This document shows, one piece after another, positions 1-61,777 of a stretch of DNA of 64,000 nt (positions are counted from its first letter, which is position 1; every line of letters begins with the position of its first letter). The DNA is from an uncultured virus (IMG/VR IMGVR_UViG_3300011693_000001). Taxonomy: Duplodnaviria; Heunggongvirae; Uroviricota; Caudoviricetes. Below the pieces are notes generated by a model. The model had not been told where the DNA came from, did not search any database, and saw nothing but the letters and a program-made list of their open reading frames with translations. A program made the translations under genes and the position numbers. Location: positions 186,001 to 250,000 of the IMG/VR virus record IMGVR_UViG_3300011693_000001; one strand, given 5' to 3'.

Positions 1-1155
1 AAAGTCTCTATCGGTGCTTCTTTCTGGAGTGAACGGGGGTTTTGGAAACTCCGACATGACGGGGAGCAATTCAATATTGAGTCTAGCAAAGTTCTGGTCT
101 TAGGCTACGGACATAAAGTTACTTTCTTAACACCGTCGGGAAAAGAATACCTGATACACACGGAACGCAACATAGATGCCAATAATAACTACAAAGGTTA
201 CTACATAAGACTGTATGATACCTCAGATTGGACATTGGTAAACACCTTCCATTTCACGACATGGGTTGGTCAATACGGCACATCCAGTTTTGACATCACA
301 GGGATAAGCTACTGTGAAGTAAATGACATTATCATACTGTCAGTCTGTCGGATAGATGGCACCACTTATGACAGTACATCGCTGTATGCTGTGCACAGGT
401 ATAACGAGATAGATAATACACTAACTCAGTTAAGCAACGGTTACATTTCGAGCGCATACGGTACGATGTTAAACGTGGGGTTCGGTGCCATTATCCCCAC
501 GGGGCAAGGTAACTATATTTTGCCGATAACGGCAGGCACTGCTAGCATAAATTTGATTACGATAGCAGATAGGGTACGTAACGTAGGTATCGAAGTGTTA
601 TTCGATACCGGTACAAGTAAGCTGGTAAAAGAAACGCAGTCTAGGATAATGGCGATACTGGAACACACGGATGGCACTAAGAAGATAGGTGTGTCTCCTG
701 TAAAACTAACAGGCTACTCCGATCCAGCCTACACTAATGCGATGGCATCTATTGATTTCGGAGAAGGGGCGACAGGTCCTATGCCATCAGGTCGTGGTCA
801 TTATACATCTATTATCAAAGGTAAACTTTATCAAATATCTGAAATAGTTAGATATGCTCCGGGAACTACATTCCCAGACGGAGCCTTCCGTTTTAGGGGT
901 ATGGAGTATGCGAACGGGAAACTAAACACACAGGTAGATATAGATACCATTGCTGGAACCTCTATCACAGGACCGTTAGCGAATAGGATTGGGCGTAACC
1001 CTCACCCTTCGAACATTGCTGTTGTTTCGGGTGAATTGTATCACCCGTCCACTACGTTACCTGATGGTAGAGTCGGTTTATTTTCTGTAACCAGAATGAA
1101 TGCAGTACCATTTAAACACGTACCACGTATGTTTGGTTTCCTTAGCGGCGGTTGA
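1..1155 (+). CDS. Hypothetical beta-rich protein, 5'-truncated by the window edge; possible receptor-binding/propeller module
   Basis: Frame 1 is open from base 1 (KVSIGASFWSERG...) into the listed ORF 235..1155. Ends ...VPRMFGFLSGG, like ORF 5880..6965. Confidence 0.7.
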   Translation, partial: KVSIGASFWSERGFWKLRHDGEQFNIESSKVLVLGYGHKVTFLTPSGKEYLIHTERNIDANNNYKGYYIRLYDTSDWTLVNTFHFTTWVGQYGTSSFDITGISYCEVNDIIILSVCRIDGTTYDSTSLYAVHRYNEIDNTLTQLSNGYISSAYGTMLNVGFGAIIPTGQGNYILPITAGTASINLITIADRVRNVGIEVLFDTGTSKLVKETQSRIMAILEHTDGTKKIGVSPVKLTGYSDPAYTNAMASIDFGEGATGPMPSGRGHYTSIIKGKLYQISEIVRYAPGTTFPDGAFRFRGMEYANGKLNTQVDIDTIAGTSITGPLANRIGRNPHPSNIAVVSGELYHPSTTLPDGRVGLFSVTRMNAVPFKHVPRMFGFLSGG

Positions 1156-1158
1156 TAA

Positions 1159-1168
1159 TGCTAATTTA
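1159..1168 (+). promoter_or_regulatory. Candidate phage promoter motif TGCTAATTTA
   Basis: The same 9-10-mer lies upstream of gene starts on the minus strand at 12087-12095 and 57257-57266. Confidence 0.5.
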
Positions 1169-1169
1169 G

Positions 1170-1326
1170 AGCTAGAGGTAACTGACAGGAGGTGATCCTC
1201 TATCTCCTTGCAAACCGATGCAAGGTAAAAAGAATTCGGTAGTCGAAAGTTTAGCGCTGAGAAGCACCAAACAGTAGACCGATGTATAGCGCATTGAAAA
1301 AGGGGAGCCTTCGGGTTCCCCTTTTT
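1170..1326 (+). ncRNA. Candidate structured small RNA with extended Shine-Dalgarno and possible pseudoknot
   Basis: Lies between a promoter-like motif and a terminator. Contains AGGAGGTGATCC (1187-1198) and a 7-bp stem 1206-1212/1219-1225 whose loop ACCGA is complementary to TCGGT at 1236-1240. Confidence 0.45.
1297..1326 (+). terminator. Intrinsic terminator, possibly bidirectional
   Basis: AAAAA-GGGGAGCC-TTCG-GGTTCCCC-TTTTT. Confidence 0.85.
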
Positions 1327-1347: not shown

Positions 1348-1377
1348 AAAAAGGGGAGCCATTGGCTCCCCTTCTTT
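1348..1377 (-). terminator. Intrinsic terminator of the minus-strand operon
   Basis: GGGGAGCC/GGCTCCCC stem with an A5 tract on + (U tract on -), directly after the stop at 1380. Confidence 0.85.
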
Positions 1378-3725: not shown

Positions 3726-4166
3726 TCAAATGGTCTTGATTGTTACAGTAAGATCAGCTTCCACTTTCAAGCTATACAGCCTATGTGGTTGCGGAATCGA
3801 AATAGTAGTGTACGTGTTATTCAGGATAACCGTTTCCAGAATGCTACCAGTTTCTGTTTCGATCAACGAAACAGAACGGGTTCCAGAAACTTCCTTAGTA
3901 ACCATAACCGAAAGCAGCAGACCTTCTGGATCATAGTTATTAAGATCGAAGGTTTGCAGATCGGTGGTAACAAGCGTGTAGGTTTTAACCGCTTGAATAG
4001 GAGCATTGGAGACACCAAACGGTTCCCAATTACCATCTAAGAACGTGTAAAAGCCGGGAGCACTTTCGCCAACGGCTTGACTTAGATAAATTAGCGTTAC
4101 TGAATTGTCGTCGGTAACAATCGGGAAAGTCGTTACCTTCAGTATTTCAACGGAATCGAAAATCAT
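3726..4166 (-). CDS. Hypothetical fibre-associated protein
   Basis: N-terminal YL-x6-PGFY-x3-GNW module is shared with 7716..8225 and 8916..9479. Confidence 0.7.
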   Translation of the reverse strand: MIFDSVEILKVTTFPIVTDDNSVTLIYLSQAVGESAPGFYTFLDGNWEPFGVSNAPIQAVKTYTLVTTDLQTFDLNNYDPEGLLLSVMVTKEVSGTRSVSLIETETGSILETVILNNTYTTISIPQPHRLYSLKVEADLTVTIKTI

Positions 4167-47806: not shown

Positions 47807-50800
47807 TTACTTTCCATAGTAGCCCATTGATCTAGCTACACCCAGCGGTGATTGTGAACCTGTGCCGTTACCGGAACCGTGCATTCTCGTACCGCCAGAA
47901 CCTAAACGACCTACTGCGATAGCTCCTGCTGATCTACGCTGATCCTCTACTTCTGGTTGCAATACTTCATCGAACTCTCCGCATACCAATCCGAACATCA
48001 TAATACAGATAGCGCGGAACAAGTCGTCCGTTACGTTGTCACCTTTAAGCACCTGACTACCATTATCTCTAACTGTAGCCATTTGGAACAATGTATGTTC
48101 GACTGGTTTGTTTTCAAAGGCTGATGGATATTCACCTTCAAAACCGATGATTTGATCCATAGTGATTCCTTTCTCTTTTGTGCGAGGAAGAATCACTTTA
48201 CCGCCTTCGATAGCGTTCTTTACATACCAGAGGTCTTTGTACTTGAGCGAGTATTGTTTCTTCATCACGCCAAGTTCTTCAACGGCATCATCAAGTAGTT
48301 TAATCGAGTTCCAACGGTCAGCAAGTAGACCACGACCGTTACGGAAAACAATCATCGGCTTGAGAATTTTCTCGTACATCTTGTTGTAGTTGAGAGGGAA
48401 GCCGGGAATCGGAGCACATTCAACTAAGCTATCGACGACGAAGTAATCACCATCCTTATAACCGGACGCTGCGGCAAAAGAGTTGTTCACGTGACCAGCA
48501 TCGATACCTACTAGCGTAGGACGATTGCTTTCTTTGAACGAAGTAAACTCAGCCCAACGATAAGCAGAGCCGGGATTGGTTCCGTTCTTTTGCTTGTACA
48601 TGATTTCGAATGGGTTACGTTTCTTACCCACCGTACTCATAATGTACTTATGGTTGCCGATAAACGGGTTACTGATCAGTGGCGGATTCGCTCCCCAATC
48701 GCGTTCGGCGGCTAGCGGGTCTTTCTGATAAGCGTCCGTAATAACTTCGGAGTCACGTGGAAACTCAGGGTTAATCTCCCAAGTAGGGCGATGGATGGCT
48801 AGAATGGTACGGCTGTTTTGCCCGAGTCGAGTCAGTTCGCAAATCTTGTCTGATAAAGAAGATGGCGACGATACGTTAAAAGCATAAGCGTTAGGTATGT
48901 TGTCGAAACCCATGCGCAGAGTTTTGTACGCGGCCTGACGGACTGTACCGAGCGAACGGTCGAGGGCATCGTAAATAGCGTGACCAGATACCTTAACTTT
49001 CTTACTATCTTTCTCGCTATCGAACCAACCGATTTCGTCCACAGAGCTAAGCATACGAGTGTTGTGCGAAGTCAAGCAGTTAGCTGTAAAGGCGTGGTGT
49101 TTAGGAACAGTCACGTCGTACACTTTCTTCTTAACGTTTTTACACTTCACAGATACGACACACTCATAGTGAGCGCCAAGTTCAAGAAACTCTCGTAACC
49201 TAGCTGCACGTTCGGAGTTCACCGATTCAAGAACAGGCATCAGCTTGCCCCAATCATCTTCGTAAACAACGTACTCCGAAACTGTAGCATCCCTGGAAGT
49301 TTTTGTTAAGCTACTTCGCAGATGACGAATACAATTCGGTTTAAGAGTATTGAGAATTGTCTCCCCATTCTCACAAACCAATCGGCGCAGACGTTTCCCA
49401 TCCGTATCCTGCATACGTGCATCCTCGTAAAAGTTCCAGAGGAAATTACGCACATGAGGCAGCACACGGCGATCCGAACCAAAACCAGCGGGAACATCAC
49501 GGTAACGATCAGCGTATTTCTGAACCTTGGCTCGTTTAAAGCATTTCAGGAACTGGATTGCATCGGAGCCAGTGATAGATACAGTCCAATGAACGCGACG
49601 TGCATCATACTTACCAGTCTTGCGATTCAGTTTGTCGAACCGTTCTTTACGATCCAAGCGACCGAGAATACCATACACTTGGAACAGAATGATCTGGAGT
49701 TGTGTAGCTAATCGTTTACTCGCACTGCCAATTTCAATTTCAGAGGGCGCGTTGTTACGATTGCCGCCGCCACCATTAGTTCCAGAGTCGCACTCAAAAT
49801 AGGCTTCAAGGAATTCATGGAGTATAGGAGCAGGAGCGGTACGGATAGCAAACGGGATTTCTTTCTTACCTGATTTAACAGCACGGTATCCTACAGGTTC
49901 AAGATGATCGCGCAGGAAATGTAGCATGCCACCTTTTGTACCAGTTGCCAAATAGTGCGTAGTCGCACGGATACCTTCTTCGCCTCCATAACTTGTCGGA
50001 GAATGACCGGTCACTCGTTTGAACACACGATACAAACGTTTGATTACAGCAGGATCGTCGCTACTGATTTCATTACGATATCCGTTAGCTACATGATAGC
50101 CCAGCAGGGTCGCAAGGTCTTTCGACACATCCGACTTACCAAACATCGGTTTGTTATTTGCAGTCTTAGAGACAATCCAATCACCTTCACGAATCTCATC
50201 CAATCGAGTCCAGCGATACTCAAGCTCTGGAGTCAATACCAACATCGGATGTTCTTCTGTACCCTCGATGGTGAAACCATTTCGAGTAGCGAGTTTAATT
50301 GTTGTCGCTTTAGTCTGATATGTGTGGCTAACCTTTACATTACCGACGTGACTATCAATGGTCAGCTTATGTGCAGGTACTTGACCTTTGCGCTTTACAA
50401 GTTCCTTGAACGAGGTGAAACCATGATTGGTATTTACCATCGTACTACCGACCAAGCAACGTCCGCGAAGCGCTCTCTTGTCCGGCCCGGCTGGATAGAT
50501 AAGCAGATTACGCGCACGGTATGCGGTGAAGGTGTCGTTGAATTTCATCAGAGATTCACCTAAGCGATTCTCTGTGTCTTTCAACATAGCATGGTAGCCT
50601 TTGAACCAATTAGATTCAGCTACAGCGTTGTAGTAGTAATCCCATAACGCTTCTTTAGCCTGCGCATAGTTAATCGCAACGAACGTACCAATGAAGGTTG
50701 TGTTATTACTGAGGCCAAACGCAGCAGGAGGCTTTTGTAGTTTCAAGTAACGGTGCATCAAGTACGGCGACAACGTAGTACCTACGGTCAACGACTTACC

Positions 50801-51625
50801 GGCACGCTGTCCTGCTCGAACGGCAAGCTCTTGGTAGAAGTTGATTTCACCATCACGATAAAGTTTCGACTTACGCGCATGACAGGACGGACAAATACCA
50901 TGCTCCAACATGCAAACTTTCTTTTCGAAGGTAGCGTAAGTGTCATTTACTTTGTGGTCATGCAGCAGCCACTCCATATCACTACACTTCGGGCAGAATT
51001 CAGCAAACAGCAGAACTCCCCAAATCAACTGCTCAAGGAATGGCCGATCATTCGTACCGCTAAACTGATCCACTGTGACCCACTCGAACAAATTCTTCGC
51101 TTGTGGAAAAGCGGAGTCATCGATGCGTAGGTCTTTCGGCGCCATATTCCGATGAGCATCTTCGAATGCTTCCAGAATAACCGATTGTAGATTAAGTTCG
51201 TTCTCGACTTCAGCTATGTGCTCTTTCAATTGCTCTTCGACAACGTTAGCATTACTGCTAGAGTTCAGCGAAGTTAGAAAATGCAGAGGATTGTCATAAG
51301 CGTATTCGGGAAGGATGAGAGCATCTTTAAAGGAGACGTCTTTCTTAAACGGTCGTCCTGTGCTATCAAGAATAACGCTATCGCGCGGGATAAGAGCAAC
51401 AGACTTAGATTCCTTGGCATGCAATCCAGATTTAGGTTGCATACCTTTCGGTTTCAAGCCTACGTCTTTAGGTGCGAGTGTTGCCGCTTTTGGTTTCAAC
51501 GAACTCTTCTGTACGGTTGAGTCATCCGTCTTAGCTTTCTTGGAAAGCGCGGCATTGGATTTTGCCTTCTTCGACGATACGGCTTTCTTTTTATCAGCCT
51601 TCGCCACTTTACGGGTTATCTTCAT
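47807..51625 (-). CDS. terL: Terminase large subunit, interrupted by an intein
   Basis: Walker A GQRAGKS, LRGR|T, Walker B VDEIGW, nuclease GIDAG and DDLF. Confidence 0.9.
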   Translation of the reverse strand: MKITRKVAKADKKKAVSSKKAKSNAALSKKAKTDDSTVQKSSLKPKAATLAPKDVGLKPKGMQPKSGLHAKESKSVALIPRDSVILDSTGRPFKKDVSFKDALILPEYAYDNPLHFLTSLNSSSNANVVEEQLKEHIAEVENELNLQSVILEAFEDAHRNMAPKDLRIDDSAFPQAKNLFEWVTVDQFSGTNDRPFLEQLIWGVLLFAEFCPKCSDMEWLLHDHKVNDTYATFEKKVCMLEHGICPSCHARKSKLYRDGEINFYQELAVRAGQRAGKSLTVGTTLSPYLMHRYLKLQKPPAAFGLSNNTTFIGTFVAINYAQAKEALWDYYYNAVAESNWFKGYHAMLKDTENRLGESLMKFNDTFTAYRARNLLIYPAGPDKRALRGRCLVGSTMVNTNHGFTSFKELVKRKGQVPAHKLTIDSHVGNVKVSHTYQTKATTIKLATRNGFTIEGTEEHPMLVLTPELEYRWTRLDEIREGDWIVSKTANNKPMFGKSDVSKDLATLLGYHVANGYRNEISSDDPAVIKRLYRVFKRVTGHSPTSYGGEEGIRATTHYLATGTKGGMLHFLRDHLEPVGYRAVKSGKKEIPFAIRTAPAPILHEFLEAYFECDSGTNGGGGNRNNAPSEIEIGSASKRLATQLQIILFQVYGILGRLDRKERFDKLNRKTGKYDARRVHWTVSITGSDAIQFLKCFKRAKVQKYADRYRDVPAGFGSDRRVLPHVRNFLWNFYEDARMQDTDGKRLRRLVCENGETILNTLKPNCIRHLRSSLTKTSRDATVSEYVVYEDDWGKLMPVLESVNSERAARLREFLELGAHYECVVSVKCKNVKKKVYDVTVPKHHAFTANCLTSHNTRMLSSVDEIGWFDSEKDSKKVKVSGHAIYDALDRSLGTVRQAAYKTLRMGFDNIPNAYAFNVSSPSSLSDKICELTRLGQNSRTILAIHRPTWEINPEFPRDSEVITDAYQKDPLAAERDWGANPPLISNPFIGNHKYIMSTVGKKRNPFEIMYKQKNGTNPGSAYRWAEFTSFKESNRPTLVGIDAGHVNNSFAAASGYKDGDYFVVDSLVECAPIPGFPLNYNKMYEKILKPMIVFRNGRGLLADRWNSIKLLDDAVEELGVMKKQYSLKYKDLWYVKNAIEGGKVILPRTKEKGITMDQIIGFEGEYPSAFENKPVEHTLFQMATVRDNGSQVLKGDNVTDDLFRAICIMMFGLVCGEFDEVLQPEVEDQRRSAGAIAVGRLGSGGTRMHGSGNGTGSQSPLGVARSMGYYGK
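49061..50458 (-). mobile_element. Intein (466 aa) with LAGLIDADG-type domain in TerL
   Basis: Starts CLVGSTMV; block B IEGTEEHP; ends VYDVTV..HHAFTANCLTSHN followed by T. Confidence 0.93.
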
Positions 51626-57301: not shown

Positions 57302-60079
57302 CTACAATTTATCTTTTGTCTTCTTGATGTAAGCATCTACTTCATCGAGTTGACGAAGAACACGATCAGCTGGGGCTTTTTGATCAGCTTTCAGCGATTT
57401 AATCGTCTTCTTAATTTCCTTTTGCTTAGCTAGAATATCATTAAGTTCTAGCTTGGCAAGTCGGCGAGCTTGTAGGTCAAGAATGGCCTTAACAAACTCA
57501 GCTGGTTTCTTCCACTTTTTCATCAGCATCTGATCGGGGTCTTTCTTCGACTTCAATGCTTGGAAAATGTCTTCCAGATGATCGACAGCGAATTGCAGCA
57601 TTTCCTGATGCTGATACTTTTTCTCCTCATCAGCAATCAGTTTCTTCAACACCGCCGATTCAAGCTTTACTCGAAACTCACACCACTTCTCCAGCATACC
57701 AGCTACGTTAACTTCTCCAAAGTCAGCACTGCCGTCCTTGTTACGTCGCGTATAACCGATGTTGAATTGCAGTGCGCCGGTTAGCTCCTTCTCGATTTTC
57801 GAGATTAGCGGCTCCAGCAAATGATCATCTAGGTTTTTCTTAAAACTGATCGTGTATCGGATGTTGTAATTACCAACACCAGCTGCCGAGTCATCGTTGA
57901 TTTCCTTGATGCCGGGCAGGTCACGTAGTTTGACCAGTTTTTTCTCAATCGTGTTTTGCGAACCAAAAGCAGGCGAGCACGATTCAATGTACAGCTCGCG
58001 GCGGTGACGATCAAAGCGCGTTTCGCAAACAAAACGGATGCTACCACGACCAGTCTTGTACACTTCGAGGATTTCATCGAAAGTGGAAACAATACGACCG
58101 CCGTATTTCGAATTCACTTCCAAATTCTTTGCTAACCACTTGCTAGTGATTTTCTCACCTTGCAAACAACGCTTCACTGCTTTCAGTACACCTTTTAGCT
58201 TGAAGCTAGGCATACCTACAGCTACACCAAACGCAGGCGCCCGCACTGTACCGGTCAGAAGTATGACAGGTAACTTGGCGGGAAAGAAAAGAGGCCATTC
58301 GGCATCGTTCGAAAAGTTTTTTACATACGGAACAACAGCAAGATATTTCGGATCGAGAATAAACTTGTCGCTGAATTCAGACAGGCGTGCTTCCGTATTA
58401 TGAACGATCATACCGTTGGCTGTGTACGAGTTAGAACCCGGAACAGTCAGATCGTAAGTGGCCTCATCACCGATATAACGAATCGAGCGAACTTCGGTGA
58501 GGAAGTAGTCACAATCAAGGATATGCCGCAACTTACCAACAAGGGAAGGAAAATGCTTTCCGACAAACTTACCGACCGAGCTTAGCCATTCACGCAGACT
58601 TTCCAGAGTGCATGGCATCGCACGGCCAGACAGACCACGTAGCATAGCCAGCTCGTAACGTGGGATAGCTTGATTGTGCTCATTCACTTCACTATCAAGA
58701 ATCTCACTATAGTGATCGCGCACTACTTGCGGCAACCATGAGAGCTTCTGGTTATCGTAAGCAGAGTTGAGTGCTCTTCCGCCTTTGCGTTCAGAAAGGA
58801 AACCAATCTCTCTCTGAAACTTATCGTACATCGTCTTGCTGCACAGATACAGAGTATGTTTGCTCTGACGGAACGGCAGGCCGAATTTCGTCAGCAGCAA
58901 CACCTGTAGCTGATCCAGCAATTTGTTGCTTCTGGAACTGTAGCTGATGCCGGAGTTATGCACGCTACCGTCACCTTCAAACAATGCGGACAGGAAAGCG
59001 ACAACTTCTTTCTTGGAACCACGCAGAACACAAGCCGGAATCTCTTTGTCCTTAGCGGTGCACGGATGAATGCCGTTAGCTTCCAAGAACTTACGCACAT
59101 GAGTGGAGTTAATTGTGACTTGAGCGTATTTACGCTTAGCCCAATTCTTTTTATCAGGCTCACGCCACGTGGTAGATACCACAATTCCGGGAAACAGTTT
59201 TTCGGTAAGATCGGTGAAGAGATTCACCATAGCCTCGTCCGAATTCATAAACTGAATCGAAGCTGTGCCGATGCTACCTTCTGAAATAAGCAGACCGAGC
59301 CATGCAGCAAAGTCAGCGGACATACGCTTAGGCACGGGGTAAACTTTATAACCGTAGCGCAAAGAGGATTCGCTAGGTGCTTCCGGTTGAATCAGAACAC
59401 TACCCTGCTTGGGCCAAGAAACACTCGGGTTACGCTTGTAGCAAACAACATCACCCTCTTCCAGAGTCTCGATGGTACGCCATACGAAAGCCAAATCAGA
59501 GGAGAGAACCAGCAAAGGCTCGTTACTTGTACCTTTAATGTGACCTATTGCAGTTTCGACGCGATAAATTTCACGAACACCACTGTCCAACCAGAATGCA
59601 GCCTCTTCGACACCGTTACGTGTTTCGACTTTCAGTTGAATAGGCAGTTTCTTTTTAGGTGACAGACCCAACACGCTAGGAATATCACCGATAGGAATCA
59701 AACCTTTCTCAGTGCTTACCAGTGTATCGCCTGTGAAACAATAACGCATCGCTGCTGCACTTGAATCATGGCGACCCCAGTTACCAAAACCATCTACTAG
59801 GTTAGGCAGTGAATTCGCAATAGTAACCATCGCATCGTAGCAGGCTTGGTCGCCATGCGGATGGTATTTACCGATAACATCACCGACCGTACGTGCAGCT
59901 TTTTTATACGGATCGTTGTAATGCAAACCCAATTGGTACATCGACCAAAGAATTGCGCGGTGAACTGGTTTCAATCCATCGCGGTAATCTGGAATGGCGC
60001 GATTCTCTACAACGTGAGAACCGTATTCCAGCATTGCACCTTCAACAAACTCTTCGAGGTGCTGGTTATTCGTTCCCAT
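57302..60079 (-). CDS. gyrA: Type IIA topoisomerase subunit A (GyrA/ParC-like, no C-terminal pinwheel), intein-interrupted
   Basis: [45 protein letters not shown]. Confidence 0.92.
58397..59740 (-). mobile_element. Intein (448 aa) with LAGLIDADG endonuclease, right after the catalytic Tyr
   Basis: CFTGDTLV...WLGLLISEG...[10 protein letters not shown]...TYDLTV...[10 protein letters not shown] followed by T. Confidence 0.95.
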
Positions 60080-60244
60080 ACTTATACGTCCTTTAACTAT
60101 CCGCGGAACCTTAACTACTACCGGAACCGTAGAGCGCCCCTCGGCAAGTGCGGGGGTAGGGCCATGATAGCATGACCCTCCCGGCAGGTCAACACGTCTC
60201 AGCAGGTCCGACGAGCGGTCGAGTGTGATGGCACACAGCCATCA
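60080..60244 (-). promoter_or_regulatory. GC-rich structured intergenic leader upstream of the topo II gene
   Basis: Hairpins at 60226-60244 and 60158-60179, an enclosing stem, and duplicated GGTTCCG and TAGTTAA. Confidence 0.45.
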
Positions 60245-61777
60245 GTCCTCGGCGTCGTCATCATCGGCTTCGACGGATTTCTTTTTCGCTTTTGCTTTCT
60301 TCGCTTCCAATGCACGCTTTTCAGCAAGCATTGCAAGTTCGCCACCTTTCTTATTGCACTGATCTTCCAACCACAAACGAAGTGCTTTTGGCTTTACGCC
60401 CTTATCAGCACACAGGTCTTTGATTTGCGATTTAGTGCCTTCGATGAGAACTTTGAATTCAAGCCAAGAAAACTTCTTGCCGGCATACGGAGTACCTTCG
60501 CCGAAAAGAATCTTGTCACGCTGACCAGAGATTTGTCCTGTTGCTCTCAAATAATTCCAAGCATCCCAAGTCATGCAGAAGCCGGTAGGCTCCCCATCAG
60601 CATCACCGATACGAGTACGTAGAATTACTTCTTGCAGCGGACGACCACCGAGTTTGTTCTTGATGGTTTTGACTTTGATGTAGGCGTAGTAATCAACAGC
60701 ACCTTCATCTTTGATCGACTGCTCTTCTTCGATATAACCTTTGCCGTGTGGGATAACGGTTTTGGCTGTACGCATACGAACGTCCGAGAAGAACTTGAGT
60801 GCGTTACCACAAGGCTCGCGTTCAGTCGGACCATACATAACGCCAATGTTTTCACGAATCTGATTGATACCAACAATCACGATACGCTTCTTCTTCATCT
60901 TAGTCTTGATACGCGGAATCTGCTTCGAGAACATCCGCGCTTGCAGACCGAGCGAGTTATCACCATCTTCCTTATCGTCCATCGACTGCGGGTTCATCGC
61001 AGGATAAGAATCGGTCAGGATGATTGCTTGCAGGCTACCATCTTCTGCTTCAACACGCAGCTTGTTATGCTTGGAGAAATACTTCTTGTCGTATTTCCCT
61101 TTCAGCATCGACTGGTTTTCTTTGGTGTTCTCGTAAACGTAGTACCACTTGCCTTTCATGTACAACTTGTCAGGCAGGATACGTTCGAGTTCCGCAACAG
61201 CCGAGAAGAACTGTTCACCAGTATCCGGCGACGAGTAGTAAACCAGAGGTTCGCTAACGTAGTTACCGTCTTCGTCTTTCTGACCGAACACGTCTTCCGC
61301 ACTAACTTTCACACGGGCATTTTTCAGGATAGCTTCGAAGTAATCGAACTGCACCGAACCTTCGTAGTCGAAGTACGAGCTATAACCTTTGAAGTTGTTG
61401 CGCAGGATACTCGCAACGATAGTCATCGCCAGTGTCGACTTACACGACTGTTCACCACCCAACGCGGTGTACCAACCACCAGCAACCAGACCGCCGCTAA
61501 TAATCAAGTCGAGGGAGATTAGGCCAGTCGAGAATCGCGGCTCATCTTTCGACAACGCGCCACTAACAAGGTCGAACTTCTTTTCGATCTTATGCAAACG
61601 AGTGCGAGCAAAGCTAACCGGGTTAAAGAACTCAGGTTGCTCGATTGCTACTGCGCTACCAGAATCTTCGTTATCCTCTGCGCCTTTTTTGCGACGGGTC
61701 TTAGGGGCAGATTCTTTTTTCGGAGAAGCACGCTTACCACGCTTCTTTTCTGACTCAGCTTTCGCAGCCTTCGCCAT
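60242..61777 (-). CDS. recA: RecA/UvsX-like recombinase
   Basis: STGLISLD, GGEQSCKST, LQARMFSK, INQIRENIGVMYG.TE..CGNALKFFSDVR. Confidence 0.92.
   Translation of the reverse strand: MAKAAKAESEKKRGKRASPKKESAPKTRRKKGAEDNEDSGSAVAIEQPEFFNPVSFARTRLHKIEKKFDLVSGALSKDEPRFSTGLISLDLIISGGLVAGGWYTALGGEQSCKSTLAMTIVASILRNNFKGYSSYFDYEGSVQFDYFEAILKNARVKVSAEDVFGQKDEDGNYVSEPLVYYSSPDTGEQFFSAVAELERILPDKLYMKGKWYYVYENTKENQSMLKGKYDKKYFSKHNKLRVEAEDGSLQAIILTDSYPAMNPQSMDDKEDGDNSLGLQARMFSKQIPRIKTKMKKKRIVIVGINQIRENIGVMYGPTEREPCGNALKFFSDVRMRTAKTVIPHGKGYIEEEQSIKDEGAVDYYAYIKVKTIKNKLGGRPLQEVILRTRIGDADGEPTGFCMTWDAWNYLRATGQISGQRDKILFGEGTPYAGKKFSWLEFKVLIEGTKSQIKDLCADKGVKPKALRLWLEDQCNKKGGELAMLAEKRALEAKKAKAKKKSVEADDDDAED

Follow-up and report, generated by a model that had tools for sequence, protein, structure and literature searches.

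A predicted small RNA with a start-less Shine-Dalgarno sequence and a pseudoknot in a PaBG-like jumbo phage, and related elements in other phages

What could a phage gain from an intergenic element that complements the whole 16S rRNA 3' tail, offers no start codon at the usual place and runs straight into a pseudoknot? The element lies in a stretch of 64,000 nucleotides (the window), which represents positions 186,001-250,000 of a complete virus record of 259,605 bp. The genes of this record include those for portal, terminase, sheath, baseplate, tail-fibre and endolysin proteins, and the nearest relative of the portal is found in Pseudomonas phage PaBG (56%); the source virus is a PaBG-like jumbo phage. 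The element is flanked by a plus-strand gene that stops at 1155 and by a convergent gene whose end is at 1380, and the following features were distinguished:

1..1155, plus strand: upstream gene, open at its 5' end, at least 384 aa, without PHROG match, outside the RNA
1162..1168, plus strand: candidate phage promoter core TAATTTA, an enriched upstream word
1187..1198, plus strand: extended Shine-Dalgarno (SD), a 12-nt complement of the 16S 3' tail by sequence match
1200..1205, plus strand: non-start triplet CUA, then UCU, in the register that AUG takes in ordinary genes sharing this SD
1206..1240, plus strand: H-type pseudoknot (S1 1206-1212/1219-1225, L1 1213, S2 1214-1218/1236-1240, L3 1226-1235)
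1241..1279, plus strand: variable middle part with a weak GAAA hairpin, a GAGA-tetraloop hairpin (1256-1265) and a linker
1280..1296, plus strand: AUAGC-pentaloop hairpin (loop 1286-1290), overlapping the ACCGA of a proposed switch
1297..1326, plus strand: predicted intrinsic terminator closing the RNA unit, in a position shared with PaBG, Yoloswag, AD1 and JA11
1348..1376, minus strand: terminator belonging to the convergent gene (1380-1982), separate from that of the RNA

The unit and its boundaries

A sequence-only reading of this DNA had proposed a self-contained phage small RNA that combines an anti-16S sequence lacking a start codon with a pseudoknot, a proposal with which the homologues, the covariation, the promoter motif, the terminator and the layout in PaBG all agree. 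The parts it listed were found in place, namely the 12-mer (1187-1198), the stem 1206-1212/1219-1225, ACCGA at 1214-1218, TCGGT at 1236-1240 and the 10-nt linker, a second ACCGA at 1278-1282, an ATG at 1218 with its stop at 1275-1277, and two separate terminators, one on the plus strand (1297-1326) and one on the minus strand (1348-1376). Two conserved parts, AUCU at 1202-1205 and the AUAGC hairpin at 1280-1296, were absent from it.

The unit is about 150 nt long, contains no ORF and is bounded by a promoter motif and a terminator, between which the 12-nt complement of the 16S tail, AUCU, the H-type pseudoknot and the AUAGC-loop hairpin follow one another in this order. The word earlier called promoter-like, TAATTTA, proved to be the most enriched 7-mer ahead of ORFs genome-wide (18 of 303 upstream windows against 1.3 expected), and 23 of its 29 sites in the genome are intergenic. 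PaBG has 14 such sites as against 0 for the reversed control, one of them directly upstream of its own copy of the RNA. TAATTTA is likely to be a promoter of this phage clade, and a sigma-70-like factor is reported to be encoded by PaBG (PMC7412058). Downstream of the promoter motif at 1162-1168, the first same-strand ORF of at least 70 aa appears only after 25.9 kb. The 5' end of the RNA would fall at about 1174-1176, with late timing. Judged by the boundaries which the promoter motif and the terminator provide, the locus is an uncatalogued small RNA gene with a predicted discrete transcript.

Minus-strand TAATTTA sites in the window were noted at 4087, 12087, 15386, 17254, 22359, 23165, 39215, 47803 and 57257. 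A further site on the minus strand, at record positions 183522-183528, has no same-strand ORF for 15 kb and lies in the loop of a small hairpin, antisense to a block of plus-strand genes; it is possible that it drives an antisense transcript. CTGTAAA, too, is enriched ahead of genes (23 of 303 windows against 2.9 expected) and perhaps marks another promoter class.

Folding of 1159-1330 gave z -3.8, much of which is due to the terminator, since 1175-1296 alone gave z -1.6 in nested folding, which cannot score a pseudoknot. The SD lies 31 nt past the stop of the upstream gene, and a related contig retains 1135-1202 with other sequence upstream of 1135. No relatives of the flanking proteins were found among cultured phages or viral contigs, and hence no homologue in a syntenic position for the window's own copy; a single metagenome scan likewise gave none. 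Elsewhere in the window, internal stretches matching PHROG 9666 in the terminase, topoisomerase II and recombinase (47807-51625, 57302-60079 and 60242-61777) suggest three inteins.

The 12-mer is unique in the 259.6-kb genome (0.026 expected) and pairs over all 12 nt with the 16S tail from locus L533, at -25.5 kcal/mol and an opening cost of 6.4. It is weakly masked by a local hairpin, 1188-1192/1197-1201 (GGAGG/CCUCU), whose occupancy is about 0.75 in the nested ensemble. The complementarity earlier proposed between TAGAGG (1173-1178) and CCTCTA (1197-1202) exists but does not dominate, reaching about 0.2 in that ensemble, where the GGAGG/CCUCU hairpin wins. Immediately 3' of AUCU the pseudoknot opens with a C-G pair, and its L3 is A-rich. 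By alignment and model, the middle part (1241-1279) is some 25 nt longer than that of the homologues, which have one small hairpin there.

Copies in jumbo phages and the short form elsewhere

A BLASTN search with the whole intergenic region returned terminators only; a 63-nt core query found PaBG, LUZ100 and KZY1. The PaBG unit occupies an unannotated gap and reads TAATTTA, SD, ATCT, knot, two hairpins, terminator and convergent terminator, the head-to-head pair of terminators being common to PaBG and the window. Only in these two does TAATTTA stand directly upstream, most other copies closely following a gene. The AUAGC-loop hairpin came to light when the PaBG unit was set beside the window. 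Of 166 sites, 6 have a loop of this type, where shuffles give 1.2 +/- 1.0; loop-free patterns recovered AUAGC in L587, L598, Yoloswag and AD1 and AUAGA in L562, and JA11 has AUUGC in its terminator instead of the AUAGC hairpin. Roughly 10-20 nt upstream of the SD, L587 and L598 carry a word resembling the DnaA box. In Yoloswag, the annotated gp200 (KY448244.1, 167891-168079) runs over the RNA element and probably does not represent a genuine gene.

Nine copies were aligned with MAFFT. In this alignment pairing holds for 83% of cells, and both sides have changed in 10 of 16 pairs (0 of 500 shuffles), although the structure was derived from the same nine sequences and S1 is shifted by one column in three rows, so that the covariation test leans both ways. 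Covariation among related phages had been set as a test of the small RNA proposal, and to this extent the outcome is favourable. Eleven of the 12 SD nucleotides are invariant in all nine copies and AUCU is an invariant word. In the AUAGC hairpin the loop is conserved among the jumbo-phage homologues and the stem sequences vary, both sides having changed in five of six pairs. That the AUAGC loop might pair with the loop of the SD or with CUAU was considered; by eye, such pairing was inconsistent among members.

A model, R1, made from eight jumbo-phage copies with the window excluded, finds 1185-1299 of the window at 51.5 bits (E 2.4e-12; next match 6.8 bits), and the window has all parts of the jumbo form, that is, SD, AUCU, S1, S2 and the AUAGC hairpin. 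JA11 and L596, both outside the model, score 41 and 38 bits, compared with 11-17 for plain ribosome-binding-site and 16S-antisense controls. The source genome has one copy by this model; a 19-bit match at 151.2 kb looks like chance, and two look-alikes, at 72.9 kb and 34.8 kb, belong to coding sequence and have no SD. Nothing was found by model R1 in 121 gammaproteobacterial genomes, a set without a positive control. In a loop-anchored viral scan the stem was present at one of seven full-SD sites (already known) and one of 79 partial-SD sites and no new member emerged, which indicates that the AUAGC hairpin is restricted to the clade.

The same portal family is encoded by all five IMG/VR carriers tested. 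Among cultured relatives, four of 11 (PaBG, Yoloswag, AD1 and JA11) have the jumbo form. Model R1 did not find it in Lu11, NCTB, RSL1, Aura and BcepSauron, nor did a check by pattern only find it in GR7B and RHph_N46; with four of 11, the element is dispensable at clade level. One perfect copy was found in each of five out of five phages, in each of three out of three further carriers and in the source genome, and the neighbouring genes differ within the jumbo clade.

The short form, consisting of the SD, 1-4 nt, AUCU and the pseudoknot, is found well beyond these phages. In LUZ100 it is situated 13 nt past tRNA-Asn and ahead of a mapped RNA 3' end, T15, which is reported as a 74% drop and as not a predicted intrinsic terminator (PMC10204088). 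The printed sequence of T15 and its coordinate are about 28 nt apart, which places this 3' end 40-65 nt beyond the LUZ100 knot. In this part of LUZ100 (OP329100.1, 20769-21069), the 'terminator' T14 falls on the 5' end of tRNA-Asn and is for that reason probably a processing site. The available text of the LUZ100 paper mentions no small RNA (PMC10134795).

An exact search with 1187-1203 found nine loci in unrelated phages, diverging directly after ATCT with a pseudoknot often still formable. The counts from the viral scans are samples of the matches listed rather than totals. Among the matches listed, 36 of 109 distinct viral AAAGGAGGTGATCC sites, a handful of which are coding repeats, have ATCT within 0-7 nt, with about three expected. 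ATCT is the commonest 4-mer after AAAGGAGGTGATCC in these listed sites, at about ten times chance, and ATG occurs 24 times. Among the matches listed, 62 of 158 distinct viral sites have a compact H-type pseudoknot that begins no more than 2 nt from ATCT, as against 9.2 +/- 2.4 in 20 dinucleotide shuffles and two of 74 SD sites without ATCT. After filtering, the first pair of the pseudoknot is C-G in 51 of 51 listed sites, where the scan pattern itself required C or T, and loop 3 begins U-N-A in 39 of these 51 listed. Double-sided S2 changes were seen in three related phages (L497, L504 and L512), and the search pattern had left S2 free.

At the 109 unselected viral SD sites among the matches listed, the preferred offset is 1-2 for ATG and 1-4 for ATCT, and in 42 of the 51 filtered pseudoknot sites listed the triplet ahead of UCU is NUA. 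None of 56 listed pseudoknot sites has a start codon within 8 nt of the SD, partly by construction, as ATCT fills the slot. On chromosomes, a start codon (AUG, GUG or UUG) precedes UCU in 24 of 24 picked loci resembling the sRNA CC2171. Of unselected alphaproteobacterial loci, 30 in number, 21 proved to be 16S antisense; the other nine all have a start codon at offset 1. In a genome scan, 49 matches with a five-nt gap (mostly one coding motif) were set aside, as were zero-gap matches, seven of nine of which are archaeal 16S antisense. Since chromosomal SD RNAs carry a start codon at this very spot, the register is fixed, with the phage NUA in the place of the start codon. Members with a substitution or insertion in GGAGG (L633, L646, L653, L669, L689, L716, L719 and L616) nevertheless keep GGUGAUCC, AUCU and the pseudoknot, which is odd for a plain SD.

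As to genomic setting, 29 of 33 knot-bearing loci with long flanks lie behind a same-strand ORF, and 17 of the 33 are no more than 7 nt past the upstream stop (among the matches listed); a simple ORF caller placed six of the 33 inside an ORF. Gut-phage members are often inside late operons. Of 44 neighbouring genes scanned among the matches listed, 26 are for holin, endolysin, scaffold, head protease, portal or tail proteins, the remainder being nine unknown families, six without match and three others; these 44 come from 65 called, with opposite-strand and doubtful calls excluded. Many members without a pseudoknot pass from AUCU directly to a hairpin or terminator. A tRNA adjoins four of 45 loci scanned (L001, L469, L473 and LUZ100), and at a fifth it is about 60 nt downstream. 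In L469 and L473 the SD-AUCU and a plain hairpin stand immediately ahead of a tRNA-Tyr or tRNA-Ile gene. A role in readthrough, frameshifting or as a SECIS element was considered and rejected, given upstream stops in all frames and at varied distances and, after the triplet, open frames whose length varies from 3 codons upward. From these sequence comparisons the motif is a family present in many unrelated phages, including phages of distant hosts.

Possible roles of the RNA

A perfect start-less SD joined to a conserved knot points to putative 30S binding without translation. The reading preferred here, to which a probability of roughly 45% is assigned, is that a discrete non-coding RNA of about 150 nt binds free 30S subunits non-productively and in trans. 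The 12-nt complement would pair with the whole 16S tail and thereby set NUA in the P site, followed by UCU in the A site; in that position, no 70S initiation complex would be expected to form. From +7 onwards, an mRNA must be single-stranded to enter the ribosome channel. The pseudoknot starts at +7, so that the RNA could not thread and the subunit may be proposed to stay parked. A parked 30S would have its 16S tail covered, and so shielded from tail-first nucleases, and would be withdrawn from competition for other messages. The likeliest purpose would be to conserve or ration ribosomes in the infected cell, and the AUAGC loop may have been added in the jumbo clade as a contact for a protein or the ribosome.

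Parking of the 30S accords with a start-less, ORF-less unit that has its own promoter motif and terminator both here and in PaBG and occurs once per genome, and precedents exist in SD oligonucleotides that protect the 30S from RNase R (PMC10901742) and in the competition exerted by SprF1 (PMC8938821). It would, however, cost the phage its own translation, it leaves the invariance of AUCU unaccounted for, and it sits uneasily with the GGAGG-broken members, the partial masking of the SD by self-pairing and the patchy distribution (four of 11 cultured relatives). Gut-phage copies in late operons, moreover, fit a cis element equally well. Such an element, a STAB-SD with a structural lock whose bound 30S and pseudoknot block exonucleases, might define the 5' end for late genes lying downstream (scaffold, endolysin) or else the 3' end for the gene ahead of it; we regard it as a less probable explanation, at which the late-operon junctions, the sites just past stops and the many non-pseudoknot members running from AUCU into a hairpin or terminator all hint, and STAB-SD is reported to bind 16S without initiating and to block RNase J1 (PMC4113751). 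The units of the window and PaBG, with promoter motif, terminator and no ORF to stabilise, speak against it, as do a single copy per genome despite many late-operon junctions and the tRNA-flanked copies, and AUCU and the AUAGC loop would be left unexplained.

Those two invariant unpaired words look like protein contacts, an argument for an RNA that would serve as decoy or scaffold for a host defence, RNA-decay or phage protein through a surface made of the GGUGA-loop hairpin, AUCU, the pseudoknot and the AUAGC loop, with the SD match secondary or kept for stability. Retention of GGUGAUCC where GGAGG is broken fits this, and so does a spacer that covaries weakly with upstream sequence (0.34, compared with 0.25 +/- 0.03 and with 0.35 in the best of 60 permutations). 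Still, a 16S-tail match of 11-15 nt and the start-codon register of the chromosomal cousins need no protein, and no partner gene travels with the element, which makes a protein-binding role rather improbable. AUCU would find a different use if YUAUCU paired with the 16S stretch 5' of helix 45 in addition to the tail, so that the RNA gripped both sides of that helix in an inactive or immature 30S, outside the mRNA channel. By eye, 1200-1205 is complementary to the L533 16S stretch over 6 nt with one G-U, and among the matches listed the spacer has U at -1 in 45 of 56 and C or U at -2 in 35 of 55 pseudoknot sites. The G required at -3 is nevertheless present in only three of 51 sites among those listed, the chromosomal cousins have A or G at -2, and the wobble is kept where a Watson-Crick pair was possible; such a clamp is accordingly judged improbable to a marked degree. 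The sequence-only reading had also offered a conformational switch controlling a 19-aa ORF (1218-1277), and this we consider hardly credible. The ATG and the peptide are not kept in the nine homologues, four of which have no ATG in the knot region, and the distance from SD to ATG is 19 nt. The alternative helix of TCGGT with ACCGA (1278-1282) can indeed form 5 bp, but it is at chance level (p 0.16 for the window against shuffled sequence, 0.37 for ten members combined), and its share of the nested ensemble, 0.01-0.02, compares with 82-98% occupancy for the overlapping AUAGC hairpin that it would break. What speaks for a switch, besides the existence of the helix, is that in Yoloswag, AD1, L637 and L558 a partner of the S2 3' strand follows right after the AUAGC hairpin, with matching changes by eye, a hint of a second fold in this sub-lineage.

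Relation to known RNAs

A search of Rfam 15 with the window and with 20+20 family loci gave nothing at gathering thresholds except one tRNA; there was no covariance-model match among its known riboswitches and self-cleaving ribozymes, and ARAGORN found 0 in the window. The Rfam search suggested at the outset did produce one match on the SD-knot part, CC2171 (RF01867) at 1176-1236, with 19.2 bits, well below the gathering cut-off of 75 bits; on L020 this model reaches 35.7 bits. CC2171 is an expressed, stand-alone Caulobacter sRNA without a common neighbour (68 ORFs scanned). It is reported as validated by Northern blot in Methylorubrum (10.1101/2022.01.24.477521). It shares with the window a 5' module of extended SD, about 3 nt, RUCU and an immediate helix, CC2171 itself having the same SD, then GUCU and a helix. 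CC2171-like loci are known from Alpha- and Gammaproteobacteria, Gemmatimonadota and Planctomycetota. They are chromosomal, form a long rod and carry a real start codon with an unconserved ORF of 11-30 aa, whereas the window has CUA and a compact pseudoknot. CC2171-like RNAs (L241-L359, with a 3-nt gap and GTCT, and L528-L548) extend far more widely than the Rfam cut-off shows; they score 28-41 bits in four genomes of three phyla and are usually preceded by CAAC. Ms_IGR-5 (RF02471), an actinobacterial sRNA, opens with the same extended SD in four of four members but has AUG 4-6 nt after it with a mini-ORF and lacks the AUCU-pseudoknot, and its model gave no match on the window at E up to 10.

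In the pseudoknots of tmRNA (pk1), the pistol ribozyme (P1) and the TYMV tRNA-like structure, S1 is likewise short and the third loop is A-rich or of the U-N-A type. Unlike these, the window has no tRNA-like domain, tag ORF, catalytic core or 3' CCA, as judged by ARAGORN and Rfam.

Two further known RNAs engage the ribosome. The STAB-SD of the Bacillus thuringiensis cry3A mRNA is reported to bind 16S rRNA without directing initiation and to block RNase J1 (PMC4113751), and like it the SD of the window has no start codon at normal spacing. However, STAB-SD is a cis leader of a coding mRNA, whereas in the window a terminator and no ORF follows; a 5' UTR position is shared by some gut-phage members only, and the available text on STAB-SD mentions neither a conserved AUCU nor a pseudoknot (PMC4113751). 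SprF1 of Staphylococcus aureus is described as binding ribosomes by a purine-rich 5' stretch and competing with mRNA loading (PMC8938821); it is a type I antitoxin of one species, in contrast to the phage RNA, which has no toxin gene partner and no Rfam similarity. Extended SD-anti-SD pairing near a start codon is known in S. aureus (PMC13009471), and SD oligonucleotides are reported to shield the 30S from RNase R (PMC10901742). In the freely available literature searched, the motif is undescribed, and it may sit unnamed among the candidates of PMC5737381 or PMC10690425 (10,000 viral RNAs).

Few bacterial RNAs are known to act on the ribosome itself, among them tmRNA, SRP RNA and SprF1 (PMC8938821), and no ribosome-acting RNA from phages was found in the literature searched. 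The motif described here is compact and strongly covarying, is present in unrelated phages and in the cultured models PaBG and LUZ100, and ties two orphan Rfam sRNAs to one ribosome-docking module. Were the RNA to stabilise transcripts in cis, it would be an unrecognised and widespread control element of phage late operons. A bolder and less probable extension of the 30S-binding reading is that of a single-copy RNA 'ribosome cap' in phages of both Gram-positive and Gram-negative hosts, which would lock the 30S by its 16S tail and by a knot at the entrance and would be an RNA counterpart of protein hibernation factors, directed against host nucleases or anti-phage defences. If this were true, CC2171 and Ms_IGR-5 would be translated cousins of the cap, and these orphan sRNAs would gain a testable role. 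The kind of RNA is already known, as a start-less SD or a ribosome-associated RNA; it would be categorically new if the ribosome-cap role is true.
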